NCBI RefSeq assembly: GCF_963921235.1
Contig: NC_086097.1
Location: 119,848,001-119,912,000 of the forward strand
Reading direction: 5' to 3'
Origin: Mobula hypostoma
Lineage: Eukaryota
DNA length: 64,000 nucleotides
Shown here: positions 1 to 53,230 of the stretch, in pieces
Layout of the letters: the number at the start of each line of letters is the position of its first letter
How positions within the stretch are numbered: position 1 is the first letter of the stretch
Notes under the pieces: generated by a model
Told to the model about the DNA's origin: nothing
Databases searched by the model: none
What the model saw: only the letters and a program-made list of their open reading frames with translations
Position numbers and translations under genes: made by a program

Positions 1-293
1 GATACTATCCCTAATTTCCCTTGTCAGCCACGGGTGCACTACCTTCCCTGATATATTCTTTTGCCAAACTGGGATGAACAATTGTTGTAGTTCATCCACG
101 CGATCTTTAAATGCTTGCCATTGCATATCCACCGTCAACCCTTTAAGTGTCATTTGCCAGTCTATCCTAGCTAATTCACGTCTCATACCTTCAAAGTTAC
201 CCTTCTTTAAGTTTAGAACCTTTGTTTCTGAATTAACTATGTCACTCTCCATCTTAATGAAGAATTCCACCATATTATGGTCACTCTTACCCA
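1..293 (-). mobile_element. CR1 LINE ORF2 fragment (same family as 32160-36215 and 49325-53230), runs off the window edge
   Basis: Near-identical to the reverse complement of ~33930-34222 and ~50925-51215 (region encoding LGKSDHNMVEFF...HPWLTREIRDSI). Confidence 0.93.
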
Positions 294-1588
294 AGTCAAG
301 AATATCACTGGTAAAAAGCTCCTCTGTTCTTCAGGTGGATGTTTGAAAGCAAAGGACAGTACCATTATCATGGAAAAATATGAGATTATGAACAAATGGA
401 CTGAGTATATTCAGGAATTGTTTGAAGACGATCGAGGTGAAAAATCAGAAATTAAGAAAAACATTGCAGGTCCAAGTATTTTAAAATCTGAAGCTCATAA
501 TGCAATAAATAAGATGAAGAAAGGAAAGGCAGCAGGTCCTGATGAATTAGTAATAGAACAAATTATCACCCTTAAAGATTATGGAATTGAAATTCTTACT
601 GATTTAATCAATGACAGTTATGAGACTGGAATAATACCAGCAGAGATGAAAAAATCAGTATTTATCACTCTTCCTAAGAAAGCTGGAGCAATAGAATGTG
701 AATTACATAGGACCATAAGTTTATTGAGTCTTATCACCAAGATACTTCAAAGAATTTTGATGACAAGAGTTAAAAGTAAGATACAAGCTGAAATAGGTAA
801 AGAACAATGTGGTTTTGTGAAAGACAAAGGTACAGGAAATGCAACATTGATGATAAGGATACTATCAGAACAAACTATTCAAGTGCAAAAAGATTTGTTT
901 GTTTGCTTTATCGACTACACAAAAGCATTTGATAAAGTGAAGCACAGTAAGTTATTTGAAATATTACAGAGAACTCTAGATCTAGATTTGAAAGACCTCT
1001 GCCTAGTCAGAAATCTGTACTGGAAACAAACTGCTGCTGTAAGAATAGATGGAGAAGTGAGTCAGTTTACCAAAATCAAGAGTGGCATTAGACAAGGGTA
1101 TGTTTTCTCCCCTGATTTATTTAACGTGGACTGTGGAACAATATTACAAAAAATAGGAGACATCTTGGGAATCAAAGTTGGCAGAGAAAACATCAATAAT
1201 TTCAGATATGCAGATGACACTGTGTTAATTGCAAGTATGGAGGAAGAACTACAAAACTCAATTGATATAGTTGTTGAGGAAAGTGCAAAAATGGGCCTAT
1301 CTATCAATTACAAAAAGACAGAATGTATGGTGGCATCTGAAAAGAAGGAGAATCCTATCTGCAGGCTGAGAATAAACGGGGAGGACATAAAACAAGTACA
1401 AAACTTTTGTTACTTAGGAAGCTGGGTGACATCAGATGGCAGCTGCGACATGGACATCAAAAAAAGAATAGGGATGGCAAAAGACACCTTTATGAGAATG
1501 AAGAGTATACTGACCAATACTAAGCTAGGCATGACAACCCGCCTCAGAGTACTGAAATGTTACGTTTATCCAGTTATCTTATATGGCT
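294..1588 (+). mobile_element. RTE-clade LINE, 5'-truncated, RT region (5' half, interrupted by HERO insertion)
   Basis: ORF 277-1746 has non-LTR RT motifs: KAAGPD, HRTISLLS, EQCGF, FIDYTKAFDKV, GIRQG, NNFRYADDTVL, FCYLGS, YPVILYG. After 1588 the reading frame runs into unrelated sequence. Confidence 0.9.
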
Positions 1589-4500
1589 GTGTACATACAT
1601 CTATTGATGCTTCTGGACACATCTTCAGTGATGTTCCTGGAATCATCGGGTGTTTCGGGTCTTTCAACATCATACAACCTACTCCAGGTGACCCAGCCGG
1701 AGCTGATCAGACCCCAGCTTGTGTCCAGATGGCTAGCTACTTATGACTCCATGGCTCCCCTCTTTTGAGCCACAGCCATCTTGAGGCCCTCTCTGCCACA
1801 TCGGTGGTACTGCGGATGGCTCTCCTCTTCCTCTCTCCCTCGATGCCCAAAACGCTGAAGGCTCTAACTAAAGAATGGGCTATGAATCCCCTACAACCAA
1901 CCTCCACTGGGAGACACCTCGCTCTCCATCCAGCCTGCTGACAGTTGCTGACCAGTCCTGCGTACTTGGAGAGCTTCCTTTCAAAGGCCTCCTCCAAGCT
2001 ATCTTCCCATGGGACTGCCAGCTCCAGCAGCACCACTTGCTTAGTAGACTCAGACACTAGGACAATGTCTGGTCGCAGGGTGGTGGCTGCGATATGGTTG
2101 GGGAACTTCAGCTGCCCTTCGAGGTCCACCAACAGCTGCCAGTCCCTTGCAGAGGTCAGAATGCCTGCAGATGTCCTTTTGGCAGGTATTGGCTGCTCCC
2201 CAGCTCTGACAAAGGCAATGGTCTGCTTGGAGGGTCGGGACCGCTTCGCCCACTCAACTCCTGCGCTGACGGCTTCAGCGACGGTCTTCAGGACCTGATC
2301 ATGCCTCCACCTGTACCGTCCCTCACCAAGTGCCCTTGCACAGCCACTGAGGATGTGCTCCAGGGCTCCTCGCTTGGAGCACAGTGGGCACGCAGATGAC
2401 TCTGCCTTGCCCCATGTGTGCAGGTTTGATGGGCTTGGAAGCACATTGTACACTGTCTGGATGAGAAATTGGATGCGGTGTAGTTCAGCTTTCCAAAGAT
2501 CAGCCCAGGTCATTTTCCTCTCCACCCATTCTCCCATCTTGTCCCAGCTCCCTGTTGCTTCATTCCCACCGCCTTGCAGGCTCTCATCTCCTCCACTACT
2601 GCCCTCACCTCCTCCTGAACTAGACGACGCCTTTCCTCCCCTATGGTGTCCATTTGGGGAGTTGGAAAGGATCCTAGCCCAGCTTGGCCTTGTGTGACCA
2701 TGGCCACCAGCCTCCTGTGACGCAGCCTCGCCTCTGCCTCTGAACAGCTTCCTCTGCCTTCCACTTCCTGCCAGTACTTACTTGGATCCCTGCTCTAGCC
2801 ACCTTCGGGTCACTTGAGTCCCTATACTGTAGCACTTCTCTGGCTCTTGTTACCTTGAATTCTTCCTCCAAGGATTTGAAGGGCAGTTGCAGTTTGTTGT
2901 GGTGTCCATAGAGTGCGATGCTGCTCAGGCTCTTTGGCAGCCCCAGCCATCTCCTGAGGTGGTTGCTAACCCTCCTCTCTAAGGTTTCGACTGTCGAGAT
3001 CGGAACTGCATAGACGAGGAGGGGCCACAGGATTCTGGGAAGAATGCCATGCTGATACACCCAGGCTTTAAACTTCCCAGGTAGGCCAGACTTGTCCACA
3101 GATTTCGGCCAGCCATCCAACTCGGTGCAGGTTGCCTGAATGGATGTTGTGTCCCTTAGAGAGCTGTCAAAAACTTTGCCTAAGCTCTTGACTGGCTTTT
3201 CTGTGATGGTTGGGATGGCTGTGCCTGCGATGCTGAACTGGAACTTGAACTCCACCTTCCCTTTCCTCAGCACCATCGATCTTGATTTGGCAGGTTTGAA
3301 ACGCATCCGGGCCCACTCCACCAGCTTTTCGAGCCCTTGCAGAATCCTCCGGCAGCCTGGGACTGATTCTGTGGTGACTGTGAGGTCATCCATGAATGCC
3401 CTGATAGGTGGTTTCTGTTGAGCGGAATTCATTCTGGGCCCTCTGCACTCTGGTTCAGCAGACTTAGTGAGCATGTTCATGGCTAGGGAGAACAGTGACA
3501 CTGAGATAGTGCACCCTGTGATGATGCCAATCTCCACCTTGTGCCAAGTTGATGTAATTGATCCTGAAGAAACCCTCATCCTGAAGTTGCTGTAATAATC
3601 AGCGATAAGGTCTCTGATTCTGCTGGGGACATGATATTTGGTCAGTGTGAGCTGCACCAGCTTGTGCGGAATGGAGCCATATGCATTTGCCAGGTGGAGC
3701 CACAACACTGACAGGTTGCCCTTGTTCTCTCTGGCCTCCCTGATGAGCTGTGTCACCACACCGGTGTGCTCCAGACTGCCCGGCATCCCTGAAATGCCAC
3801 CCTTCTGGACTGATGTATCAATATAGGTGTTCTTTGCTAGGTAGGTGCACAACCGGTTGGAAACTGCACTGAAGAAGATCTTCGCCTCGACACACAACAG
3901 GGAGATGATGCGAAACTGATCTACCTGGATGGCATTTTCCTCCTTCGGGATCCATTCCCCTTCAGCCACTCTCCACTGTTCTGGGATCTTCCCCCTTCTC
4001 CAGAAGATTCTCAGGACCTTCCACAGATGCAGCTGGAGTTTTGGGCAGTTCTTTACACTTTGTATGAGGTGTTGCTTGGTCCTAGAGCCAAGCTTGCCCT
4101 TGCTTTGCGGACGACCTCTCTGACTTCCTTTAGTTGCAGCTCTGACATGTCGAACTGCACATCCGGTTCTGGTGGGTCTATTAGGATGTCGCACTCTCCC
4201 AACTCCTGCTCTCTTTCAGGATCATTATATATCTTCTTCAGATGTTGGTCTATGTCTTCCTGCGAACAGGCCAGTTTCCCACTGTGCTTCTCCCCCAGCA
4301 ACTCCTTGGTGAACTTGAAGGTGTTGGCGATAAAGGCAGCACGTTTTCGGGCCCTTTCAGGACACCGTCTCCGATGCCACTCTGCCCGGCGGAGGACCCT
4401 GATCTTCTTTCGTAGTATGCTCATCAGCTGGGCCAAGCCATTGCGCTCCTCTTCTCCTGCCTCCTTGTATTGGGACTTCAGTGCTTTCATCTCCTGCCGG

Positions 4501-5219
4501 ATGTTGTGGATCCTCGATGCTCTTTGGTTCTTCGAGTAAGATGTTTTGGAGCCTTCCTTCTCCTCTTCTCCAAACCGTTCAGCTGCGATACTGACAATAA
4601 TTGTTGTCATGGCTTGCAGCTTCCTATCAACCCCTCCCTTTGCCGTTGCCTCCAGAATTTGGTTAACATCTTCATCAAACTGCTTCCACAGTGAAGTCAT
4701 GTTAGCTGCAGGCCATTTGATCTGCCTCCTTTTAGACTTCATGTTCGAGGGATTAGTTTGCAACACTTGGAGGTTCCGGGCACTATGGGGTGATTCCGGG
4801 CCTGGCCCCTCCTTTGTCTCACCAGGTTGGACACCTGCGCGTTGTGCTGCTCCTGCTCCCGCCAAACACTTCATCCTCGCTTGGTGGATCTTCAAGCCGC
4901 GATCGTTCTTGCAGATTTTGCCACATGCACACTGCTTCCTCATCGTCGTTTGTTCATTGCCTGGGTCTGATGTCGTTGTGTCCATCCGACTGGGGTGCTC
5001 ATCCTCCCCCCCTCTCGGGCACCCCTGGGAGTATCTTTTCCTTAGATTTTTTGTGGCTTTTGTGGGGGTCCTCCTCTCAGAGGACGCAGATTGGGTTGCC
5101 AGCCCGTTCTGCCCTGGTTGCCGTCTCTCCGGGCTGTCACTGACTCTCCAGTCATCACCACTCTTTTCGTGGTTGTCACCCAGTCTTTCCTGGCTGTCAC
5201 TGATTAACTCAGGGTGTAA
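1586..5219 (-). mobile_element. HERO-like RLE non-LTR retrotransposon, apparently full length (copy A)
   Basis: Single long frameshifted ORF with N-terminal zinc finger, RT, CCHC and PD-(D/E)xK-type nuclease; ~235-nt 5' leader (4986-5219) and ~150-nt 3' UTR (1586-1736). HERO assignment rests on motif style and needs an RT tree. Confidence 0.85.
1737..4985 (-). pseudogene. HERO ORF (ZnF-RT-CCHC-RLE), broken by three frameshifts (~4060, ~2745, ~2540)
   Basis: Consecutive ORFs: 4053-4985 (CACGKICKNDRGLKIHQARMKC), 2674-4194 (FRIISLL, VQKGG, LANAYGSIPH, GIITGCTIS, AFMDDL), 2510-2764, and 1737-2537 (CPLCSKRGALEHILSGC, RWRHDQVL, LRPDIV, LELAVPWE, RKLSKY, VEVGCRG). Confidence 0.9.
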
Positions 5220-5775
5220 GCTGTGTACATGCTTCTGGACACATCTTCAGTGATGTTCCTGGAATCATCCGGTGTTTCGGGTCTTTCAACATCATACAAC
5301 CTCCTCCAGGTGACCCAGCCGGGGCTGATCAGACCCCAGCTTGTGTCCAGATGGCTAGCTACTTATGACTCCATGGCTCCCCTCTTTTGAGCCACAGCCA
5401 TCTTGAGGCCCTCTCTGCCGCATCGGTGGTACTGCGGATGGCTCTCCTCTTCCTCTCTCCCTCGATGCCAAAAATGCTGAAGGCTCTAACTAAAGAACGG
5501 GCTATGAATCCCCTACAACCGACCTCCACTGGGAGACACCTCGCTCTCCATCCAGCCTGCTGACAGTTACTGACCAGTCCTGCGTACTTGGAGAGCTTCC
5601 TTTCAAAGGCCTCCTCCAAGCTATCTTCCCATGGGACTGTCAGCTCCAGCAGCACCACTTGCTCAGCAGACTCAGACACTAGGACAATGTCTGGTCGCAG
5701 GGTGGTGGCTGCGATATGGTTGGTGAACTTCAGCTGCCCTTCGAGGTCCACCAACAGCTGCCAGTCCCTTGCAGA
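5220..5775 (-). mobile_element. Second, 5'-truncated HERO copy (copy B: RLE C-terminus plus 3' UTR), directly upstream of copy A
   Basis: Direct repeat of 1586-2153 with roughly a dozen substitutions and one 12-nt deletion. Confidence 0.93.
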
Positions 5776-6172
5776 TGTTGGACAATATCTAGTAGCATGA
5801 GGAAACGAATTGAAGCAGCAGAGATGTGGTTTTTGAGGAGGATGCAAAGAATATCATGGATGAAACGAATTTCTAACGAGGATGTCATGAACAGAGCAAA
5901 CACAAAAAGAGGAATAATGTATGAGATCATGAAAAGGCAACATAACTTCATTGGACATGTGATTAGGAAAGAGGAGTTAGAATGCACGGTAATTATGGGA
6001 AAGATTGAAGGGAAGAAAGCAAGAGGAAGACAAAGACAAATGATAATGGAGACAGCAGCTAGAGAACTGGAAATGTATACCAATGAATTGATCCACTTGA
6101 CTCGAAACAGGAGTATGTAGGCCATGGCAGTCAAAGCTCAGACTGGGCATGGTACCTGATGATGATGATGAT
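5772..6172 (+). mobile_element. RTE LINE 3' half with (GAT)n tail
   Basis: Encodes CWTISSSMRKRIEAAEMWFLRRMQRISW...GHVIRK...GKIEGKKARGRQR, which continues YPVILYG from 1588; ends in tgatgatgatgatg. Confidence 0.9.
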
Positions 6173-6695: not shown

Positions 6696-7679
6696 AAATG
6701 TACTGTTGGAGTCAATGACCAATAGAGTCCAAATATGCGTTGGGGGCAGCCCACAAGTGCCACTACACTTCCGACACCAACATAGCATGCCCACAACTTA
6801 GTAAACCCATATATCTTTGGAATATAATAGGAGACTGGAGCACCTGGAGAAAATCCCCAATCCCCAACCATATAGACAGTGGTGGGAATTGAACGCTGGT
6901 TGTTGACTGCTGGTAAAGTTTTATGGTAACTATTATGCTACTGTGTCACCTCATTCTGGTCTCTAAAATAATTTGGAGATAGTCATGGAAACTGTAATGC
7001 CACTAAAATAAATGGGTGTATTTTGATGACATCATTGTCTATGTCCTTTAGAAGCTTCATAATCAAGCTTTGGGCCTTCTCCAGGCTGCGGCAGGGTTCA
7101 GAGCTGAGGACTCAATTTTGGTTCGGATTATTCTTTTTCATTTTAATTGTTTGCATGATATGTTTCTTTTCTTTCTCTTGCTTATCAGGTGTTGGTCTTT
7201 TACTTCTATTTTTATTCTTTTTTTCCTTAATTGGGTTCTTTTAGGTTTCTTGCTTTGTGGCTACCTGTGAGCAAACAAATCTTAAGGTTGTATAATTCTT
7301 TAATAATAAATGTACTTTGAACTTTGCAGTGAGCAATCCCTACTGGAGAACATTTTCAACCCCTTCCTATTGTATATCTAAAACATGGGGATCTTTAAGT
7401 TAAAAAAGTTAGAAATTTTTCTACAAGCTGTTTTATTTACTAATTACATCGTGTAGAGAATAGTGAAATTTCACCGCACATAACACAGTCCACTAATTCT
7501 CAAAGTCCACTATTCCTCCGAAGAATTAACAAACATAACTTTGGTAGGATTTAAACTAAGAGGATTTTTGTTCCCATCTTCTCAATCCACCTTCAAAACT
7601 TGCTATTGTGTTTGGGTGGGGTGGGGAAATTAAGCCTTTAGACAGTTTAAACGTGCACTTTAATGTATATATACACATA

Positions 7680-8702
7680 CAATGGCATGCAAAAGTTTGG
7701 GCACCCTGGTCAAATTTCTGTTACTATGAATAGCTAAGCGAGTAAAAGATGACCTGATTTCCAAAAGGTATAAAGTTAAAGATGACACATTTCTTTAATA
7801 TTTTAAGCAAGATTACTTTATTATATTCCTGCGTCCTCACCACAAAATTCAGCATCAGGAGTTTGCAAAGGAACATCTAAACAAGCCTGATGCATTTTGG
7901 AAACAAGTCCTGTGGACTGATGAACTTAAAATAGAACTTTTTGGCTGCAATGAGCAAAGGTATGTTTGGAGGAAAAAAGGTGCAGAATTTCATGAAAAGA
8001 AAACCTCTCCAACTGTTAAACACAGGGGTGGATCGATCATGCTTTGGGCTTGTGTTACAGCCAGTGATATGGGGAACATTTCACTGGTAGAGGGAAGAAT
8101 GAATTCAATTAAATACCAGCAAATTCTGGAAGCAAACATCACACCGTCTGTAAAAAGCTGGAGATGAAAAGAGGATGGCTTCTACAACAGGATAATGATC
8201 CTAAACACACCTCAAAATCCACAATGGACTACCTCAAGAGGTGCAAGCTGAAGGTTTGGCCATGACCCTCACTGTTCCCAGACCTAAACATCATTTAAAA
8301 TCTGTGGATAGATCTCAAAAGAGCAGTGCATGCAAGACGGCCCAAGAATCTCATAGAACTAGAAGCCTTTTGCAAGAAAGAAAGGGTGAAAATCCCCCAA
8401 ACAAGAATTGAAAGACTCTTAGCTGGCTCAGAAAGCATTTACAAGCTGTGATACTTGCCAAAGGGTGTGTTACTAAGTACTGACCATGCAGGGTGCCCAA
8501 ACTTTTGCTTCAGGCCCTTTTCCTTTTTTGTTATTTTGAAACTGTACAGGATGGAAATAAAAAAGTAATTTTGCTTAAAATATTAAAGAAATGTGTCCTC
8601 TTTAACTTTATGCCTTTTGGAAATCAGTTCATGTTTTATTCGCTCAGCTATTCATAGTAACAGAAATTTTGAACGGAGTGTCCAAACTTTTGCATGCCAC
8701 TA
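7680..8702 (+). mobile_element. Tc1-family DNA transposon, internally deleted, IR/DR type
   Basis: TA-flanked ~150-bp inverted termini (caatggcatgcaaaagtttgg / ccaaacttttgcatgccact). Transposase remnant ~7830-8480: [45 protein letters not shown], with stops and frameshifts. Confidence 0.92.
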
Positions 8703-9404
8703 TATGGACTCACTTTCATGAAGATGTCCATGATGGTGAGGAGGTGAGTGCCCATGCTGAAGCTAGCTGAGTTTACAATCCACTGCACCTTTTTCTCCTG
8801 ATTGTTTGCTGTAGCCACTCCATACTAGATGGATGGTGCAACCAGTCACAATGTTTTCTATGGTACATCTGCATAAATTTGCTCGAATCTTTGTTAGCAT
8901 ACCCATCTTAGAGACATACAGTATGAAAACAGGGCCTTCAGCCCATCATGTCCACACTAACCACTGAACACACATTTATTCTATTACCATTTTATACTCC
9001 CAATCTTCCTATCAATCCTTTCCCTAAATTTCATCTACACTAAAGGCAATTTACAGTAAATAACAAATCTGCCAACCCATGCATCTTTGGAACATAGAAG
9101 GAAACCAGAACCCCTGGCAGAAAATCATGTGTCACCCTGGAATGCTGAATCTGTAAGATAGTAGCACTTCACCCTGCCCAGCAATTAAAATGTGGATCCA
9201 TTCAAGGAGTGCTCCAGGTGAGGCACAGCATCCAACTACAAGTTCAAGTTTATTATCATTCAAACATACACATGCATACAGCTAAATGAATCATCGTCCC
9301 TCTGAGGCCAAAGAGCAAACACAATACATATGGTCAAACAAAACACATATAATTACAATCCAGCACAAAATAACATTTGTGCGAACTCCTCATTGGTGTG
9401 GCCT

Positions 9405-32205: not shown

Positions 32206-33152
32206 ATGACAGCTGAGATCGGCCCGTGGTTTGTTCCTCCTGCAGCATGTGGGAAATCAGGGATACTTCCAGTGTCCCTGACGACTATGTGTGCAGGAAA
32301 TGTGTCCAACTGCAGCTTCTGGCAGACAGCATTGAGTGGCTGGAGCTGCGACTGGATTCATACTGGAGCATCCGCGATGCTGAGAAAGCCGTGAATAGCA
32401 GGTTCAGTGAGTTGGCCACACCGCAGGTAAAGGCTACACAGACAGAAAGGGAATGGGTGGCCACTAGACAGAGTAGCTGTAGGCAGGTAGTGCAGGAGTC
32501 CCCTGAGGTCATCTCCCTCCTAAACAGATATACTGTTTTGGATACTGTTGGGGGAGATGTCTCATCAGAGGAAGGCAGCAGCAGCCGAGTTCATGGCACC
32601 ATGGATGGCTCTGCGGCACAGGAGGGAAGGAAAAGGAGTGGGAGAGCTATAGCGGTAGGGGATTTGATTGTACGGGGAATAGATAGGTGTTTCTGTGGCT
32701 GCAAACGAGACACTAGGAGGGTATGTTGCCTCCCTGGTGCAAGGGTCAAGGATGTCTCTGAGTGGCTGCAGGAAATTCTGGAGTGGGAGGGTGAACAGCC
32801 AGTGGTCATGGTGCACATAGGTACCAATGATATAGGTAAAAAATGGGATGAGGTCCTACAAGGTGAATTTAGGGAGTTAGGAGATAAACTAAAAAGTAGG
32901 ACCACAAAGGTAATAATCTCTGGATTACTACCAGTGCCACGTGCTAGTCAGAGTAGAAATAGGAGGATATTTCAGATGAATACATGGCTTGAAAAATGGT
33001 GCAAGGGGGAGGGATTCAAATTTCTGGGAGATTGGAACCAGTTCTGGAGGAGGTGGGACCGGTACAAACAGGACGGTCTGCATCTGGGCTGGACTGGAAC
33101 CAATGCCCTAGGGGGAGCGTTTGCTACTGTTGTTTAGGAGGATTTAAACTAA
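32206..33152 (+). pseudogene. CR1 ORF1 (zinc finger/leucine zipper plus SGNH esterase)
   Basis: CSSCSMWE...CRKC, GDL (GDS serine lost), CLPGA, VHIGTND, DGLHL. Frameshift just after ATG 32206; premature TAG at 33135 ahead of the natural TAA at 33150. Confidence 0.88.
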
Positions 33153-36100
33153 TGTGGCAGGGGGATGGGTACAAGTGCAGAGAGACACAGGGGTGTAAAA
33201 TGAGGGTAGAAGCAAAAAGTAGTAAGGTGAAAAGTAAAAGTGGCAGGCCGACAAATCCAGGGCAAAAATCAAAAGGGGACACTTTTCAACATAATTGTAT
33301 AAGGGCTAAGAGTGTTGTAAAAGCAGGCCTGAAGACTTTGTGTGTCAATGCAAGGAGCATTCGTAACAAGGTGGATGAATTGAATTTGCAGATAGTTATT
33401 AATGAATATGATATAGTTGGGATCACAGAGACATGGCTCCAGAGTGACCAAGGATGGGAGCTCAACGTTCAGGGATATTCAATATTCAGGACGGATAGAC
33501 ATGAAAGAAAAGGAGGTGGGGTGGCATTGCTGGTTAGAGAGGAGATTAACGCAATAGAAAGGAAGGACATTAGCCGGGAGGATGTGGAATTGATATTGAT
33601 AGAGCTGCATAACACTAAGGGTCAGAAAACGCTGGTGGGAATTGTGTACAGGCTACCTAACAGTCGTAGTGAGGTTGGGGATGGCATTAAACAGGAAATT
33701 AGAAATGAGTGCAATAAAGGAACAGCAGTTATAATGGGTGACTTCAATCTACATATAGATTTGGTGAACTAAATTGGTAAGGGTGCTGAGGAAGGGGATT
33801 TTTTGGAATGTATGTGGGACAGTTTTCTGAACCAACATGTCGAGGAACCAACTAGAGAGCAGGCCATTCTGGACTGGGCATTGAGTAATGAGGAATGGTT
33901 AGTTAGCAATCTTGTCGTGCGAGGCCCTTTGGGTAAGAGTGACCATAATATGGTGGAATTCTTCATTAAGATGGAGAGTGACATAGTTAATTCAGTAACA
34001 AAGGTTCTGAACTTAAAGAGGGGGAACTTTAAAGGTATGAGACGTGAATTAACTTAGATAGACTGGCAAATGATACTTAAAGGGTTGACGGAGGATATGC
34101 AATGGCAAGCATTTAAAGATTGCATGGATGAACTGCAACAATTGTTCATCCCAGTTTGGCAAAATAATAAACCAGGGAAGGTAGTGCACCTGTGGCTGAC
34201 AAGGTAAATTAGGGATAGTATCAATTCCAAAGAAGAAACAGACAAATTAGCCAGAAAAAGCGGCTCACCTGAGGACTGGGAGAAATTCAGAGTCTAGCAG
34301 AGGAGGAGTAAGGGCTTAATTAGGAAAGGGAAAAAAGATTATGAGAGAACATAAAAACTGACTGTAACATCTTTTATAGGTAGATGAAAAGAAAAAGATT
34401 GGTTAAGACAAATGTACATCCCTTACCGTCAGAAACAGGTGAATTGATCATGGGGAGCAAGGACATGGCAGACCAATTGAATAACTACTTTGGGTCTGTC
34501 TTCACAAAGGAGGGCATAAATAATCTTCCGGAAATAGTAGGGGACTGAGGGTCTAGTGAGAAGGAGGAACTGAGGGAAATATATGTTAGTAGGGAAGTGA
34601 TGTTAGGTAAATTGAAGGGATTGAAGGCAGATAAATCCCCCGGGCTAGATGGTCTGCATCCCAGAGTGCTTAAGGAAGTAGCACAAGAAATAGTGGATGC
34701 ATTAGTGATAATTTTTCAAAACTCTTTAGATTCTGGATTAGTTCTTGAGGATTGGAGGGTGGCTAATGTAACCCCGCTTTTTTAAAAAAAGGAGGGAGAG
34801 AGAAACCGGGGAATTATAGACCGGTAAGACTGACATTGGTGGTGGGCAAAATGCTGAAGTCAGTTATCAAAGATGTGATAACAGCACATTTTGAAAGCGG
34901 TGAAATCATCACATGAAGGCAGCATGGATTTGTGAAAGGAAAATCATGTCTGACGAATCTCATAGAATTATTTGAGGATGTAACTAGTAGAGTGGATAGG
35001 GGAGAACCAGTGGATGTGGTATATTTGGATTTTCAAAAGGCTTTTGACAAGGTCCCACACAGGAGATTAGTGTGCAAACTTAAAGCACACGGTATTGGGG
35101 GTATGGTACTGATGTGGATAGAGAATTGGTTGGCAGACTGGAAGCAAAGAGTGGGAATAAATGGGACCTTTTCAGAATGGCAGGCAGTGACAAGTGGGGT
35201 ACTGTAAGGCTCAGTGCTGGGACCACAGTTGTTTACAATATATATTAATGACTTAGACAAGGGAATTAAATGCAGCATCTCCAAGTTTGCGGATGACACG
35301 AAGCTGGGCGGCAGTGTTAGCTGTGAGGAGGATGCTAAGAGGATGCAGGGTGACTTGGATAGGTTGGGTGAGTGGGCAAATTCATGGCAGATGCAATTTA
35401 ATGTGGATAAATGTGAGGTTATCCACTTTGGTGGCAAGAACAGGAAAACAGATTATTATCTGAATGGTGGCCGATTAGGTATAGGGGAGGTGCAATGAGA
35501 CCTGGGTGTCATTGTACACCAGTCATTGAAAGTGGGCATGCAGGTACAGCAGGCGGTGAAAAAGGGGAATGGTATGCTGGCATTCATAGCAAGCGGATTC
35601 GAGTACAGGAGCAGGGAGGTACTACTGCAGTTGTACAAGGCCTTGGTGAGACCACACCTAGAGTATTGTGTAGAGTTTTGGTCCCTTAATCTGATGAAAG
35701 ACATCCTTGCCATAGAGGGAGTACAAAGAAAGTTCACCAGATTGATTCCTGGGATGGTAGGACTTTCATATGATGAAAGACTGGATCAACTAGGCTTATA
35801 CTCATTGGAATTTAGAAAATTGTGGGGGGATCTTACTGAAACGTATAAAATACTAAAGGGATTGGACAGGCTAGATGCAGGAAGATTGTTCCCAATGTTG
35901 TGGAAGTCCAGAATGAGGGGTCACAGTTTGAGGATAAAGGGGAAGCCTTTTAGGACCGAGATTAGGAAGAACTTCTTCACACAGAGAGTGGTGAATCTGT
36001 GTAATTCTCTGCCACAGGAAACAGTTGAGGCCAGTTCATTGGCTGTATTTAAGAGGGAATTAGATAAGGCCCTTGTGGCTAAAGGGATCGGGGGTATGGA
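33143..36100 (+). pseudogene. CR1 ORF2 (APE plus RT), multiple stops and frameshifts
   Basis: NARSI, GITETW, MGDFN, SDH, DKSPG, LDFQKAFDKV, FADDTK, RPHLEYC spread over fragmented ORFs. Confidence 0.92.
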
Positions 36101-38198
36101 GAGAAAGCAGGTACAGGGTTCTGAGTTGGATGATCAGCCATGATCGTACTGAATGGCGGTGCAGGCTCGTAGGGTTGAATGGCCTACTCCTGTACCTATT
36201 TTCTATGTTTCTATATATTTTGGAAAGAGTGATCACAGTATGACCGCATTTCTCACACAAAGGGAGAGTACAATAGTTCAATCTAAGATTACTGTTTTAT
36301 GTCTAAACAAGGAAAAGTACAATTGGAAGAATTAGGAGTTGGCCAGCAGAGCCTGGGAACACAGACTGTATTGTGGGATAGCAGAGAAACAATAGAAGAC
36401 TTTTAAAGATTTTTCAGTGTTCCACAAAAATATATTTCAATGAAAGTAAGGACTGTAGGGATAGGGAGACCTATCCTTGGATAACTGGGAAGTAAAGAAG
36501 GCCATTAAATTAAGTCTCATGCATGCTAAGTTACCAAGAGATTCAAGATTGCTATTGTCATTTTTCAGTACACAAATGTAAATGAGAACAAAATTACTGT
36601 TACTCTGGATCTGATGCAGCACAAGTAAGAACACAATAAGTATGAAGAACACAGCACAGAAAACACAATAAATATCAATTTAAATACAAATGCAATCCTA
36701 TAAAGCACAATGGACCAGAGAAAATTGAACAAACTACAAGAGTAGTGGGAAACTGTCAATGAATCATTCTCTGTTAAAGAATTTTGAACCTGTTTATGGT
36801 AAATCATCATTTACTGGTGGTTTAATCAGTTCTGATCCCTGCTGTGAGGGAGCTCAGATAGAGGTTTGTGTTTCCCTTTTTTTTCCAAATGGTTGCTAGC
36901 TCTACAATTACTTGATAGTTGATGTGTCTGGCTGAACATAGGAACATGCTGATTACAAAGGGCTATTTCAGCCCTTCTCACATGAGGGAGTACTCTCTAG
37001 CAGTCACTATGTTTACAGCCAGTCATCTAATTTCATGTCGCACTAAACTGCACATTGCAATATTGAAATATGAAGTATTTGTTGAATTATATCGGCTAGT
37101 ATTTGCAACAGAGCATAGGAAAGAGGCCTGTACATTTACAATAATGGAAGGCTTAATACTTCTGTTTAAGGTGGATAGTTCTGGATTCCTTGACAGTGTA
37201 AACATCCTTTACATTACATGGATTAAAGGATCTAATTTGTATCATAACTCACCAGGACAGTGACAAACTGGTGCAGTCAGACAATGTAAAAGAAACTTGT
37301 CTTTTTATTTCAAGTGACCCACTGCATCATGCTACAGCACGATATTGGGCGTCTATTACGTTCATTAGTAATATAAAGGTCATCACACTGATCCATCGAC
37401 TACTGGGCGTAAAATTACTTTAATAGGAACTTGTCTTCTGATTTTCAAGAAAACTTTCTGTTATCCCTGATTGAAAATCTGACTGGAAGTTTTGTATTGC
37501 GGTGAGACAGATCTTCCCTTCTGATGCCTGTGCTTAAACCAGGGCCTATATGGAAATCCTGTGGAAGTCCCAGATTCCAGCAGTTCTCCCACTGTACAGG
37601 CCATGTGTAAATGAATGGTATTCTCCAAGAGACTTCCCAGTTCAGAGGCTGGCAAGCCCACCTGTTGTTTCGGCACCAAATTAAACCTGGCACAAGTATA
37701 GCAATTCTCATTTAAGTGAGTGAAAACATCAGGTGCTAGAAGACAGTTAAGTGTGAATCTAAATGTGATTTGAGGATTGGGGCATTGGAGTTATCAAACA
37801 CAGTCACAGGCCCATCGGCCCAACTTGACCATACCGAACAAGATGCTTTCCTGAGCTAATCCCAGTTTCCTGTATTTGCCCCATATCCCTCTAAGGTTTA
37901 GGGTCTAAACCTTTCCCATCCACAAACCTGTCTAAATATCCTTTAAATTCTGGTATCCACTTCTTCCATTTCCTCAGACAATTTGTCCTACCACCGTCTG
38001 GGGAAAAAAATTGCCCTTCAGCTACCCTACACCTCCTTTTCCCTCCATCTCTTGCTCCTTCACCAATTATGTACCTGTTAGGTTGTAGATCCTTAAGGGG
38101 AAACACAAGGAATTCTGCACATGCTGGAAATTCAAGCAACACACACCAAAGTTGCTGGTGAACGCAGCAGGCCAGGCAACATCTCTAGGAAGAGGTAC

Positions 38199-49324: not shown

Positions 49325-52300
49325 ATCTGATAGAGGTGATAGAGAGGAGTTGCAGGCAGGTGGTCACGCCGGGGCCACGGGAGGCAGACAAGTGGGTCAC
49401 AGTTAGGAGGGGGAAGGGGAAAAGTCAGGTAATAGGGAGTACCCCGGTGACTGTACCCCTTAACAACAGGTACTCCTGTTTGAGTACTGTTGGGGGGGAC
49501 AGCTTACCCGGGGGAAGCGACAGTGGCCGTGCCTCCGGCACAGAGTCTGGCCCTGTAGCTCAGAAGGGTAGGGCAAGGAAGAGGAGGGCAGTTGTGATAG
49601 GGGACTCGATAGTCAGGGGGTCAGATAGGCGATTCTGTGGACGCAGTCCAGAGACCCGGATGGTAGTTTGCCTCCCTGGTGCCAGGGTCCGGGATATTTC
49701 TGATCGTGCCAAGATATCCTGAAGTGGGAGGGTGAGAAGCCAGAGGTCGTGGTACATATAGGTACCAATGACATAGGTAGGAAAAGGGATGAGGTCCTGA
49801 AACGAGAATATAGGGAGCTAGGAAGGGAGTTGAGAAAAAAGACCGCAAAGGTAGTAATCTCGGGATTGCTGCCTGTGCCACGCGACAGTGAGAGTAGGAA
49901 TGCGATGAGGTGGAGGATAAATGCGTGGCTGAGGGATTGGAGCAGGGGGCAGGGATTCAAGTTTTTGGATCATTGGGACCTCTTTTGGCGCAGGCGTGAC
50001 CAGTACAAAAAGGACGGGTTACACTTGAATCCTAGGGGGACCAATATCCTGGCAGGGAGATTAGCAGGGGCTACTGAGGTGACTTTAAAGTAGAATGGTT
50101 GGGGGGTGGGAATCAAATTAAAGAGGCTGGGCGTGAGGAGGTTAGTTCACAACAGGGGAATGGGAACCAGTGCAGAGAGACAGAGGGGTGTAAAGTGAGG
50201 GTAGAAGCAAAAAGTACTAAGGAGAAAAGTAAAAGTGGCAGGCCGACAAATCCAGGGCAAGCATTAAAAAGGGCCACTTTTCAACATAATTGTATAAGGG
50301 CTAAGAGAGTTGTAAAAGAGCGCCTGAAGGCTTTGTGTGTCAATGCAAGGAGCATTCGTAATAAGGTGGATGAATTGAAAGTGCAGATTGTTATTAATGA
50401 TTATGATATAGTTGGGATCACAGAGACATGGCTCCAGGGTGACCAGGGATGGGAGCTCAACGTTCAGGGATATTCAATATTCAGGAGGGATAGACATGAA
50501 GGAAGGGGAGGTGGGGTGGCGTTGCTGGTTAAAGAAGAGATTAACGCAATAGGAAGGAAGGACATAAGCCGGGAAGATGTGGAATCGATATGGGTAGAGC
50601 TGCGTAACACTAAGGGGCAGAAGACGCTGGTGGGAGTTGTGTACAGGCCACCTAACAGTAGTAGTGAGATCGGAGATGGTATTAAACAGGAAATTAGAAA
50701 TGTGTGCAATAATGGAACAGCAGTTATGATGGATGACTTCAATCTACATGTAGATTGGGTGAACCAAATTGGTAAAGGTGCTGAGGAAGAGGATTTCTTG
50801 GAATGTATGCGGGATGGTTTTTTGAACCAACATGTCAAGGAACCAACTGGAGAGCAGGCTATTCTGGACTGGGTTTTGAGCAATGAGGAAGGGTTAATTA
50901 GCGATCTTGTCGTGAGAGGCCCCTTGGGTAAGAGTGACCATAATATGGTGGAATTCTTCATTAATATGGAGATTGACATAGTTAATTCAGAAACAAAGGT
51001 TCTGAACTTAAAGAGGGGTAACTTTGAAGGTATGAGACGTGAATTAGCTAAGATAGACTGGCAAATGACACTTAAAGGATTGACGGTGGATATGCAATGG
51101 CAAGCATTTAAAGGTTGCATGGATGAACTACAACAATTGTTCATCCCAGTTTGGCAAAAGAATAAATCAAGGAAGGTAGTGCACCCGTGGCTGACAAGAG
51201 AAATTAGGGATAGTATCAATTCCAAAGAAGAAGCATACAAATTAGCCAGAGAAAGTGGCTCACCTGAGGACTGGGAGAAATTCAGAGTTCAGCAGAGGAG
51301 GACAAAGGGCTTAATTAGGAAGGGGAAAAAAGATTATGAGAGAAAACTGGCAAGGAACATAAAAACGGATTGTAAAAGCTTTTATAGATATGTAAAAAGG
51401 AAAAGACTGGTGAAGACAAATGTAGGTCCCCTGCAGACAGAAACAGGTGAATTGATTATGGGGAGCAAGGACATGGCAGACCAATTGAATAATTACTTTG
51501 GTTCTGTCTTCACTGAGGAGGACATAAATAATCTTCCAGAAATAGTAGGGGACAGAGGGTCCAGTGAGATGGAGGAACTGAGCGAAATACATGTTAGTAG
51601 GGAAGTGGTATTAGGTAAATTGAAGGGATTGAAGGCAGATAAATCCCCAGGGCCAGATGGTCTGCATCCTGGAGTGCTTAAGGAAGTAACCCAAGAAATA
51701 GTGGATGCATTAGTGATAATTTTTCAAAACTCGTTAGATTCTGGACTAGTTCCTGAGGATTGGAGGGTGGCTAATGTAACCCCACTTTTTAAAAAAGGAG
51801 GGAGAGAGAAACCGGGGAATTATAGACCGGTTAGCCTAACGTCGGTGGTGGGGAAACTGCTGGAGTCAGTTATCAAGGATGTGATAACAGCACATTTGGA
51901 AAGCGGTGAAAAGATCGGACAAAGTCAGCATGGATTTGTGAAAGGAAAATCATGTCTGACGAATCTCATAGAATTTTTTGAGGATGTAACTAGTAGAGTG
52001 GATAGGGGAGAACCAGTGGATGTGGTATATTTGGATTTTCAAAAGGCTTTTGACAAGGTCCCACACAGGAGATTAGTGTGCAAACTTAAAGCACACGGTA
52101 TTGGGGGTAAGGTATTGGTGTGGGTGGAGAATTGGTTAGCAGACAGGAAGCAAAGAGTGGGAATAAACGGGACCTTTTCAGAATGGCAGGCGGTGACTAG
52201 TGGGGTACCGAAAGGCTCAGTGCTGGGACCACAGTTGTTTACAATATATATTAATGACTTGGATAAGGGAATTAAATGCAGCACCTCCAAATTTGCGGAT

Positions 52301-53230
52301 GACACGAAGCTGGGTGGCAGTGTTAGCTGTGAGGAGGATGCTAAGAGGATGCAGGGTGACTTGGATAGGTTGGGTGAGTGGGCAAATTCATGGCAGATGC
52401 AATTTAATGTGGATAAATGTGAAGTTATCCACTTTGGTGGCAAAAACAGGAAAACAGTTTATTATCTGAATGGTGGCCGATTAGGAAAAGGGGAGGTGCA
52501 ACGAGACCTGGGTGTCATTATACACCAGTCATTGAAAGTGGGCATGCAGGTACAGCAGGCGGTGAAAAAGGCGAATGGTATGCTGGCATTTATAGCAAGA
52601 GGATTCGAGTACAGGAGCAGGGAGGTACTACTGCAGTTGTACAAGGCCTTGGTGAGACCACACCTGGAGTATTGTGTGCAGTTTTGGTCCCCTAATCTGA
52701 GGAAAGACATCCTTGCCTTAGAGGGAGTACAAAGAAGTTTCACCAGATTGATTCCTGGGATGGCAGAACTTTCATATGAAGAAAGACTGGATGAACTGGG
52801 CTTGTACTCGTTGGAATTTAGAAGATTGAGGGGGGATCTGATTGAAACGTATAAGATCCTAAAGGGATTGGACAGGCTAGATGCAGGAAGATTGTTCCCG
52901 ATGTTGGGGAAGTCCAGAACGAGGGGCCACAGTTTGAGGATAGAGGGGTAGCCTTTTAGGACCGAGATTAGGAAAAACTTCTTCACACAGAGAGTGGTGA
53001 ATCTGTGGAATTCTCTGCCACAGGAAACAGTTGAGGCCAGTTCATTAGCTATATTTAAGAGGGGGTTAGATATGGCCCTTGTGGCTATGGGGATCAGGGG
53101 GTATGGAGGGAAGGCTGGGGCGGGGTTCTGAGTTGGATGATCAGCCACGATCATGATAAATGGCGGTGCAGGCTTGAAGGGCCGAATGGCCTACTCCTGC
53201 ACCTATTTTCTATGTTTCTATGTTTCTATG
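49325..53230 (+). mobile_element. CR1 (HER1-like) LINE, copy 2, 5'-truncated in ORF1, young
   Basis: Esterase half of ORF1 (GDSIVRG, CLPGA, VHIGTND, DGLHL; one frameshift at ~49710), long ORF2, (TTTCTATG)3 tail. Confidence 0.96.
50084..52951 (+). CDS. CR1 ORF2 APE endonuclease plus reverse transcriptase, ~950 aa open; premature TAG at 52949 removes the C-terminal tail
   Basis: Uninterrupted frame with NARSI, GITETW, VYRPP, SDH, NYRPVSLTS, QHGF, LDFQKAFDKV, GVPKGSVLGP, FADDTK. Copy 1 has AAG at the stop position and continues PFRTEIRKNFFTQRVVNL. Confidence 0.93.
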   Translation, partial: FKVEWLGGGNQIKEAGREEVSSQQGNGNQCRETEGCKVRVEAKSTKEKSKSGRPTNPGQALKRATFQHNCIRAKRVVKERLKALCVNARSIRNKVDELKVQIVINDYDIVGITETWLQGDQGWELNVQGYSIFRRDRHEGRGGGVALLVKEEINAIGRKDISREDVESIWVELRNTKGQKTLVGVVYRPPNSSSEIGDGIKQEIRNVCNNGTAVMMDDFNLHVDWVNQIGKGAEEEDFLECMRDGFLNQHVKEPTGEQAILDWVLSNEEGLISDLVVRGPLGKSDHNMVEFFINMEIDIVNSETKVLNLKRGNFEGMRRELAKIDWQMTLKGLTVDMQWQAFKGCMDELQQLFIPVWQKNKSRKVVHPWLTREIRDSINSKEEAYKLARESGSPEDWEKFRVQQRRTKGLIRKGKKDYERKLARNIKTDCKSFYRYVKRKRLVKTNVGPLQTETGELIMGSKDMADQLNNYFGSVFTEEDINNLPEIVGDRGSSEMEELSEIHVSREVVLGKLKGLKADKSPGPDGLHPGVLKEVTQEIVDALVIIFQNSLDSGLVPEDWRVANVTPLFKKGGREKPGNYRPVSLTSVVGKLLESVIKDVITAHLESGEKIGQSQHGFVKGKSCLTNLIEFFEDVTSRVDRGEPVDVVYLDFQKAFDKVPHRRLVCKLKAHGIGGKVLVWVENWLADRKQRVGINGTFSEWQAVTSGVPKGSVLGPQLFTIYINDLDKGIKCSTSKFADDTKLGGSVSCEEDAKRMQGDLDRLGEWANSWQMQFNVDKCEVIHFGGKNRKTVYYLNGGRLGKGEVQRDLGVIIHQSLKVGMQVQQAVKKANGMLAFIARGFEYRSREVLLQLYKALVRPHLEYCVQFWSPNLRKDILALEGVQRSFTRLIPGMAELSYEERLDELGLYSLEFRRLRGDLIETYKILKGLDRLDAGRLFPMLGKSRTRGHSLRIEG

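Follow-up and report, generated by a model that had tools for sequence, protein, structure and literature searches.

A hammerhead-like fold in the tail of a head-to-tail HERO retrotransposon and a possible circular RNA route of replication

We analysed a block of HERO-type retrotransposon DNA in a 64,000-nucleotide (nt) stretch of Mobula hypostoma contig NC_086097.1 (positions 119,848,001 to 119,912,000; this whole stretch is called the window, and positions are counted from its first letter). We found that a full-length copy of the element, copy A, is joined tail to head to a 5′-truncated piece of the same element, copy B, and that the 3′ untranslated region (UTR) of both carries a conserved, covarying hammerhead-like fold that is predicted to self-cleave. 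We propose a model in which HERO elements would replicate via a 3.6-kb protein-coding circular RNA. The hammerhead in this model would have a seventh topology, with CUGANGA split from stem II and a four-way junction that clamps the cut ends for ligation, while the leader would position the reverse transcriptase (RT) and may drive cap-independent translation. We regard the model as evenly balanced between right and wrong.

Organisation of the HERO block and its insertion site

The block lies inside the open reading frame (ORF) of another long interspersed nuclear element (LINE), and its parts are as follows.

232..1588, plus strand: 5′ part of the host RTE-type LINE ORF (RVT_1 match at 3.3e-29, empty-site joints; the RTE label is that of the preliminary description)
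1586..5219, minus strand: copy A, a full-length but frameshifted HERO-type retrotransposon without long terminal repeats (non-LTR) and with a restriction-like endonuclease (RLE), placed by RVT_1 (2.2e-18) and zf-RVT matches, protein identity and an RT tree
1586..1596, minus strand: 3′-end motif of the family, of which 1586-1588 are common to element and RTE target
5049..5219, minus strand: 5′ leader, with repeated short hairpins, purine-rich loops and UGAC linkers, then more hairpins
5219..5220, minus strand: tail-to-head junction, which recurs in other copies and organisms (contigs of runs X3, X7, X14 and X10)
5220..5774/5775, minus strand: copy B, a 5′-truncated 3′ piece (endonuclease C-terminus and 3′ UTR), with 5772-5775 as microhomology with the RTE element
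5776..6117, plus strand: continuation of the host RTE-type ORF, placed by reading frame and empty-site joints

Copy B is 555 nt long and directly adjoins the leader of copy A at 5220/5219 with zero spacer. It matches the 3′ end of copy A with 97.45% identity over 550 nt, and the end motif ATGTACACAGC closes both copies (A 1596-1586, B 5230-5220, minus strand). No third copy of the element was found in the window. Fourteen mismatches were aligned; one of these (2154/5776) falls in RTE sequence and was set aside, which leaves 13 substitutions and a 12-nt deletion in B, so that A and B are about 2.4% apart. The missing 12 nt lie immediately ahead of the end motif, and because other copies of the family retain them the deletion is private to B. 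Using metagenome contig L001 as the outgroup, and setting aside misaligned last rows and one RTE base, we assigned seven derived substitutions to A and five to B, with one unpolarised. By this count A and B look equally old, which fits one event without proving it.

The host ORF runs from 232 to 1588 and picks up again from 5775/5776 to 6117. When contigs of the public runs X1 and X4 were aligned to the locus, uninterrupted RTE copies were found that link 1588 to 5775, mostly via CAGA (11 contigs in X1 and 7 in X4). Since these empty copies join 1588 to 5775, the whole block occupies one break without a target-site duplication. The 3′ junction has 3 nt common with the host (1586-1588), and the 5′ junction has 3-4 nt of microhomology (5772-5775) and the loss of about one base. 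A and B were likely laid down in a single insertion event. Our data thus bear out three claims of the preliminary description, namely that a partial copy is fused without spacer to a full-length 5′ end, that both copies end in the same sequence, and that the block sits at a single site in the RTE ORF.

We also considered CACAGC as an RTE target-site duplication framing two insertions. This was rejected, as empty RTE sites read GGCT and then mostly CAGA. It was rejected also because other HERO copies carry the end motif to 1586/1587. Copies that end at 1586/1587 and then enter unlike flanks were present in 88+65 contigs of X1, 64+66 contigs of X4 and 11 reads of X21, so that the end motif belongs to the family and the targets are not fixed. 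The 3′ flanks are mutually unlike (consensus agreement 0.36-0.37), indicating that there is mostly no strict target sequence, as reported for HERO (PMC4640811). The block does not have the form of an LTR retrotransposon: the upstream piece, or head, varies in length between single loci (about 25 nt in metagenome locus L033, 62 nt in L044 and 555 nt in the window), there is no integrase match and no target duplication.

Copy A contains a single ORF of about 1100 codons (about 5048-1740, stop codon 1739-1737) that is interrupted by three frameshifts (near 4054, 2740 and 2526-2567), and by its sequence it is a dead copy. In addition to the RVT_1 and zf-RVT domains found with Pfam, it has a CCHC knuckle and, towards the C-terminus, the motifs of a restriction-like nuclease (RH, PD, E and KxxKY, in part after PMC5678591). 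No GIY-YIG match was found, and the RLE motifs and HERO-type RT set the element apart from Penelope-like elements. Protein segments of A have 79-89% amino acid identity to teleost proteins and 51-70% to Tetraodon AAN12398; the RT itself reaches 89% identity with a Limanda protein and about 70% with AAN12398. In an RT tree of 40 rows, with no R2, R4 or NeSL outgroup, A falls inside a 100/100 clade of 21 rows together with Tetraodon and Takifugu proteins. We take Tetraodon AAN12398 and BAC82599 and Takifugu BAC82598 to be HERO proteins, named Zebulon, HEROTn and HEROFr. The elements of these two pufferfish resemble copy A in their single ORF with RT, CCHC knuckle and C-terminal PD-(D/E)xK-type nuclease, in 67-70% RT identity and membership of one 100/100 clade, and in their non-specific targets.

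Three side observations concern the same DNA. Copy A (1586-5219) has 86% DNA identity over 3.5 kb to L001, and its protein is 79-89% identical to flatfish and mackerel proteins (P0001/P0130); if the host of the window is not a teleost, these likenesses suggest horizontal transfer. Run X4 over 1350-6000 shows frequent GATC insertions, which suggest a proximity-ligation library in which chimeric joins are possible; the tail-to-head junction has no GATC site. Finally, depth in X1 and X4 is about two to three times higher over 4626-4937, and contigs link 1910/1911 to 4573-4599; the cause may be a non-autonomous derivative with an internal deletion, or mis-joins at low-complexity sequence.

The hammerhead-like fold in the 3′ UTR

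Metagenome contigs yielded 97 relatives of the element among 131 stretches, and the best 80 were kept as 79 loci. The aligned tails contain NUH, GAAA and CUGANGA in that order (S-G-C), and in the window the fold is laid out as follows, all on the minus strand.

1612..1729: hammerhead-like fold of A, predicted cut 1673/1672, one stem III mismatch
1729-1720, 1719-1695, 1694-1690 and 1688-1682: upstream parts of the fold of A, namely strand a, a hairpin, strand b and strand c
1675-1673, 1656-1653, 1628-1622 and 1621-1612: core parts of the fold of A, namely the GUA triplet, GAAA, CUGAAGA and strand a′
5234..5351: hammerhead-like fold of B, predicted cut 5295/5294, two stem III mismatches

A distance of 3622 nt separates the predicted cuts of A and B, and the cut of A lies 87 nt inside its 3′ end. 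Our core search required only the words NUH, GAAA and CUGANGA, their spacing, and stems I and III. Both window copies and 31 of 38 ORF ends gave a match; of the seven ORF ends without one, four have at most 154 nt downstream. Controls gave 2 hits in 990 shuffles and 0 in 33 reverse strands. The 33 distinct cores have the triplets GUC (14), GUU (10), GUA (7) and AUA (2), where H follows by construction from the required NUH, and the three full-length misses have no G at the H position wherever a motif is visible. Core variants include U3-A8 and U3-G8, with U3-A8 replacing C3-G8 in two distinct cores. The 3′ UTR core of L029 and L033 (and L028) reads UUGACAA (U3-A8, with A9); the change is compensatory and falls within the catalytic core. 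That of L057 and L059 reads UUGAAGA. Covariation of U3-A8 has been reported in natural Penelope hammerheads (Cervera and de la Pena 2014, PMC4209133).

We found that the wiring around this core is unusual. The base after A9 pairs with the base before GAAA in none of the 33 cores; the base before GAAA has as its partner (31 G-C and 2 G-U) a G placed 19-26 nt upstream of the cut site. Helices that the search did not require exceeded their shuffled means: b of at least 5 base pairs (bp) in 29/33 against 3.5, c of at least 6 in 23 against 6.2, the hairpin of at least 6 in 27/33 against 4.0, and a of at least 6 in 19 against 0.9. In the best examples no gap separates helix a, the hairpin and helix b, which gives a predicted four-way junction with the core as its fourth arm.

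The fold is also supported by covariation. In a structure-blind MAFFT alignment of 31 of the 33 cores (L020 and L041 left out), pairing holds in 91.4% of cells, and both sides have changed in 20 of 23 pairs. The covariation score was 0.685, compared with 0.205 for shuffled and at most 0.175 for slid alignments, a contrast that related sequences inflate for the shuffles and that stems I and III, being partly selected, share in. Pairing partly required by the search is high in stems I and III (95.8% and 93.2% of cells, with 5/5 and 5/6 pairs changing on both sides); helix c, the link between stem I and stem II, is 85.1% paired with changes on both sides in 6 of 7 pairs. The RNA-processing signal that the preliminary description had considered possible upstream of the leader therefore has a candidate, the hammerhead-like fold in the upstream tail. 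A known ribozyme at the junction itself was dismissed, since Rfam gave no ribozyme match on 4900-5420.

The leader shows conservation of its own, with 68-77% nt identity to most of the distant leaders and changes on both sides in 22 of 36 predicted pairs (13 sequences, distant families). The 3′-end sequence varies by family, while its distance to the first leader hairpin is constant at 5-7 nt (window, L002, L005 and L033). If the RNA is circular, the priming site would have the first leader hairpin immediately downstream. If it is linear, this spacing could mark a start site, so the spacing does not decide between circle and linear RNA. In L057:2189-2603 and L059:2239-2588 the distance from the predicted cut site to the leader is about 340-410 nt, compared with about 93-147 nt in others.

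The tail-to-head junction and its possible origin

Contigs of all four runs aligned on 5010-5250 (X3, X7, X14 and X10, from four studies with three organism labels) span 5219/5220. Past 5230, junction contigs enter the family 3′ end with the 12 nt missing from B (7 in X3, 2 in X7 and 1 in X10), and X14 record 16 crosses the junction with a 12-nt insertion relative to B. Because they hold these 12 nt, the junction contigs represent other copies. Records with at least 31 letters on each side include X14 no. 16, X7 nos. 30-32 and X3 no. 24, and the junction alignment has no listed indels in most of its depth under the three organism labels. Depths at 5228 and 5194 were 1389/6870 in X3, 732/3805 in X7, 124/343 in X14 and 22/141 in X10; these ratios are affected by edge loss, do not give copy numbers and are taken as presence only. 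Runs X19 and X20, a small share, were left out.

A leader profile gave 26 matches in the 79 metagenome loci, 22 of them with an intact leader start; the matches in L001, L021 and L024 and the second one in L054 were excluded, as they either begin far inside the profile or duplicate a locus. A whole ribozyme-like core precedes 16 of the 22 complete leaders and a partial tail precedes three (L005, L033 and the minus strand of L044), so that 19 of 22 follow a 3′ tail. Ten of the 22 helped to build the profile; among the 12 that did not, a tail precedes the leader in nine. L028 and L029 belong to the same family, as do L057 and L059, and ribozyme-bearing loci extend to about 39-47% RT identity. 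We found 0 matches to the exact junction pattern in the metagenome contigs. Ten contigs are circularly permuted or terminally overlapping (L009, L010, L012, L014, L019, L028, L029, L031, L047 and L059), which shows that the junction is common but not whether it is DNA or RNA. The junction is therefore typical of the family, as had been raised as a possibility. The counter-case raised at the same time, that other full-length copies start cleanly in flanking DNA, applies to the three of 22 leaders without a tail but not to the 19 that follow one.

Upstream pieces often continue through the predicted cut site, as in B and the 16 whole-core loci, which indicates that the template was continuous there. 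Genomic copies that are continuous at the cut site and often exceed one unit call for an uncut multimer, or else for a circle that is ligated or clamped. In our view A and B probably arose from one target-primed reverse transcription that ran for more than one round on a predicted circular RNA of about 3.6 kb, which the hammerhead-like fold would produce by cleaving two tandem tails and linking the ends. A parent copy with its own tail upstream would be transcribed through both tails, and each fold would cleave after NUH, so that a unit of about 3.6 kb is released with its ends held together by pairing in helices a, b, c and III. Either the ribozyme itself or a ligase of the host would then ligate the ends, or the RT would pass over the nick. 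The RT would begin 5-7 nt upstream of the first leader hairpin, priming from a few bases of target microhomology, copy the ORF and leader, pass the junction and halt variably in the second round (about 25, 62 or 555 nt).

This scheme would restrict which copies propagate. If the fold cuts, the RNA of a lone copy would lose its last 87 nt and could not have a normal 3′ end, whereas a copy with a tail upstream would give a complete permuted unit with its ends paired through four helices. Only copies whose head holds the entire fold (about 145 nt or more) would become parents of the next round. For engineers of R2-type insertion tools, an RLE-type RT able to start within a circular template would be of interest.

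Several results weigh against this proposal, and the first group concerns the fold. The canonical stem II, with a strand directly after CUGANGA, is absent in 33/33 cores, and because Eckert et al. 2023 assumed this block to be unsplittable (PMC10085705), activity of the fold is not assured. Stem III has mismatches in both window copies, one of which (1677/5299) is common to A and B, helix a is short in 14/33 cores, and the core search did not find the core in L030, L074 and L079, three HERO ends with enough sequence among the 38. An Rfam search of 4900-5420 at E<=10 returned four chance-level matches and no ribozyme. Plain minimum-free-energy folds of the leader and 3′ UTR, in which no pseudoknots are possible, were not significant against shuffles (z -1.3 and -1.5).

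The second group concerns the junction. One X14 contig misses one base there; on one of its sides the X10 junction contig extends for only 28 nt, and the RNA label of X10 is a guess. Some copies begin in flank between 5169 and 5222, including X10 copies at 5221 and 5222, 2-3 nt beyond the junction, and no tail precedes the leader in L011, L072 and the plus strand of L044. A linear 5′ end would account for starts at the leader edge, but so would an RT that stalls on meeting its own first cDNA. The permuted contigs are collapsed repeats, in which DNA arrays and RNA circles are not told apart. The clearest result against a pure single-circle model is L007:85-7330, which joins head to tail two HERO families only 68% alike over their whole length; this joint could be a switch in the conserved leader, a template switch, a later or targeted insertion, or a chimeric assembly.

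Part of this evidence is what an end-to-end template jump would produce. Here the RNA would be linear, from leader start to 3′ motif, the RT would jump at its 5′ end to the 3′ end of a second RNA, and the fold would be an element for RT binding or for clearing read-through. The two families united in L007, the copies that start at the leader edge and the variant lacking one base are all consistent with it, and end-to-end jumping is documented for the R2 RT (PMC5678591). We nevertheless consider it unlikely: an active ribozyme would strip the last 87 nt from a linear template, and the full catalytic core is retained, including the U3-A8 covariation. Template jumps usually leave variable junctions, and the HERO junction has no listed indels in most of its depth across three organism labels.

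The uniform junction and the continuity through the cut site would be explained, without ligation, if the template were an uncut linear transcript of more than unit length. Parents in partial or full tandem would be transcribed from a promoter in the upstream copy or the host, and the ribozyme would be slow, regulated or used only to make translation-ready monomers, a scheme that resembles the logic of HeT-A. Uncleaved oligomers are mentioned as Penelope templates (Weinberg et al. 2019, PMC6765202). On this account heads would shrink in each generation unless long arrays exist, the 555-nt head requires a parent with at least as much, and the pairing of the cut unit's two ends via four helices is left unexplained. 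We therefore judge it rather improbable as well.

Independent insertions are very improbable. In this case the endonuclease would favour a site just upstream of an existing leader, so that B arrived later, before the head of A. The heterologous tandem L007, the 2.4% divergence of A and B and the tandem insertion at one target seen in site-specific RLE elements such as Utopia (PMC4640811) speak for it. However, most 3′ ends lie in unlike flanks (agreement 0.36-0.37), the derived changes are balanced (7 versus 5), the 25-nt head of L033 is identical to its own tail, and the start of A would have to coincide with the family junction. The arrangement is scarcely to be credited to an assembly artefact or to a later local duplication: 13 substitutions and an indel lie between A and B, the host ORF is continuous across the block, and the same junction, which is not at a GATC site, turns up in independent runs of four studies.

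Two further searches concern relatives of the element. None was found in viral contigs. Genome contigs gave a single match, L080, a 412-nt HERO RT fragment with 74% identity that makes up a whole contig of a bacterial genome record and is likely host contamination. Locus L044 contains two different HERO elements back to back on opposite strands, and the minus-strand head is about 62 nt of tail after unique flank.

Relation to known systems and other features of the window

Bouneau and colleagues reportedly proposed in 2003 that Zebulon, an element of the HERO clade, moves as a partial tandem array. The title of Bouneau et al. 2003 (PMID 12805276) names a tandem structure for a Tetraodon non-LTR element, and the earlier suggestion that the replication mode was undescribed for HERO elements finds no support in the form in which it was put. 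The partial tandem architecture thus has precedent, while the predicted rewired hammerhead and the proposed mechanism appear new. If true, our proposal would supply a mechanism, open to test, behind the partial tandem structure described in the pufferfish element in 2003. We found no report of a HERO element with a ribozyme, hammerhead, circular RNA or conserved structured leader in the open literature, a body that does not cover most subscription journals or Repbase Reports, and the same literature yielded no wiring in which the stem II strand is supplied from upstream.

Eckert et al. 2023 (PMC10085705) describe six block orders, assuming that CUGANGA and the stem II strand are contiguous, and report that a hammerhead of type SGC (HRIMA-1) cleaves. 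The HERO fold shares with type SGC the order cleavage site, GAAA, CUGANGA, the core letters, a short linker between stems I and II and a helix joining the far ends of these stems. It differs in that block C is split after A9, so that the order is kept without three unbroken blocks, and we regard it as working like type SGC without filing it there. G10.1 is contributed by a strand that lies 19-26 nt upstream of the cut, and after A9 the chain enters a separate helix, which gives the predicted four-way junction. The RNAs of Eckert et al. come from sequence collections, none from the genomes of known organisms, whereas the HERO folds, which are predicted to cut, lie in animal LINEs. If the fold cuts, it would be a hammerhead wired outside the six permutations that these authors deemed possible, carried by a widespread clade of animal LINEs.

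A model of cutting, circularising and over-copying has been given for Penelope elements (PMC4209133; PMC6765202). Penelope-like elements and non-LTR retrozymes (PMC4209133; bioRxiv 10.64898/2026.07.22.740005) resemble the HERO element in their partial tandem, the hammerhead in the repeated part and the proposed cutting, circularising and more-than-unit copying. Penelope elements differ in their telomerase-like RT, GIY-YIG nuclease and type I hammerheads, and retrozymes in being non-coding; the HERO element is autonomous, belongs to the R2-like RLE LINEs and carries a hammerhead whose wiring is different. If our proposal is true, the circle-and-roll logic proposed for Penelope would exist also among R2-like RLE elements, which have another RT and another nuclease. 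The accessible text of Weinberg et al. 2019 (PMC6765202) has no occurrence of 'HERO'. R2 and other LINEs are likewise RLE LINEs whose RNA is processed by a self-cleaving motif, as is predicted for HERO, but R2 has a ribozyme like that of hepatitis delta virus at its 5′ end that releases a linear RNA (PMC6765202), while the hammerhead-like motif of HERO lies in the 3′ UTR with a predicted cut 87 nt inside the element.

The window holds further mobile DNA. One LINE has an open endonuclease-RT frame of 957 aa at 50078-52951; a relative with 91.8% identity lies at 33158-36214, with a GDSL-esterase ORF (32217-33137) ahead of it, and positions 1-295 are a fragment of the same family. At 7676-8706, inverted repeats of about 155 nt (90%) flank a short frame (7799-8167) with no Pfam match at 1e-3, which resembles the remnant of a Tc1-type transposase.

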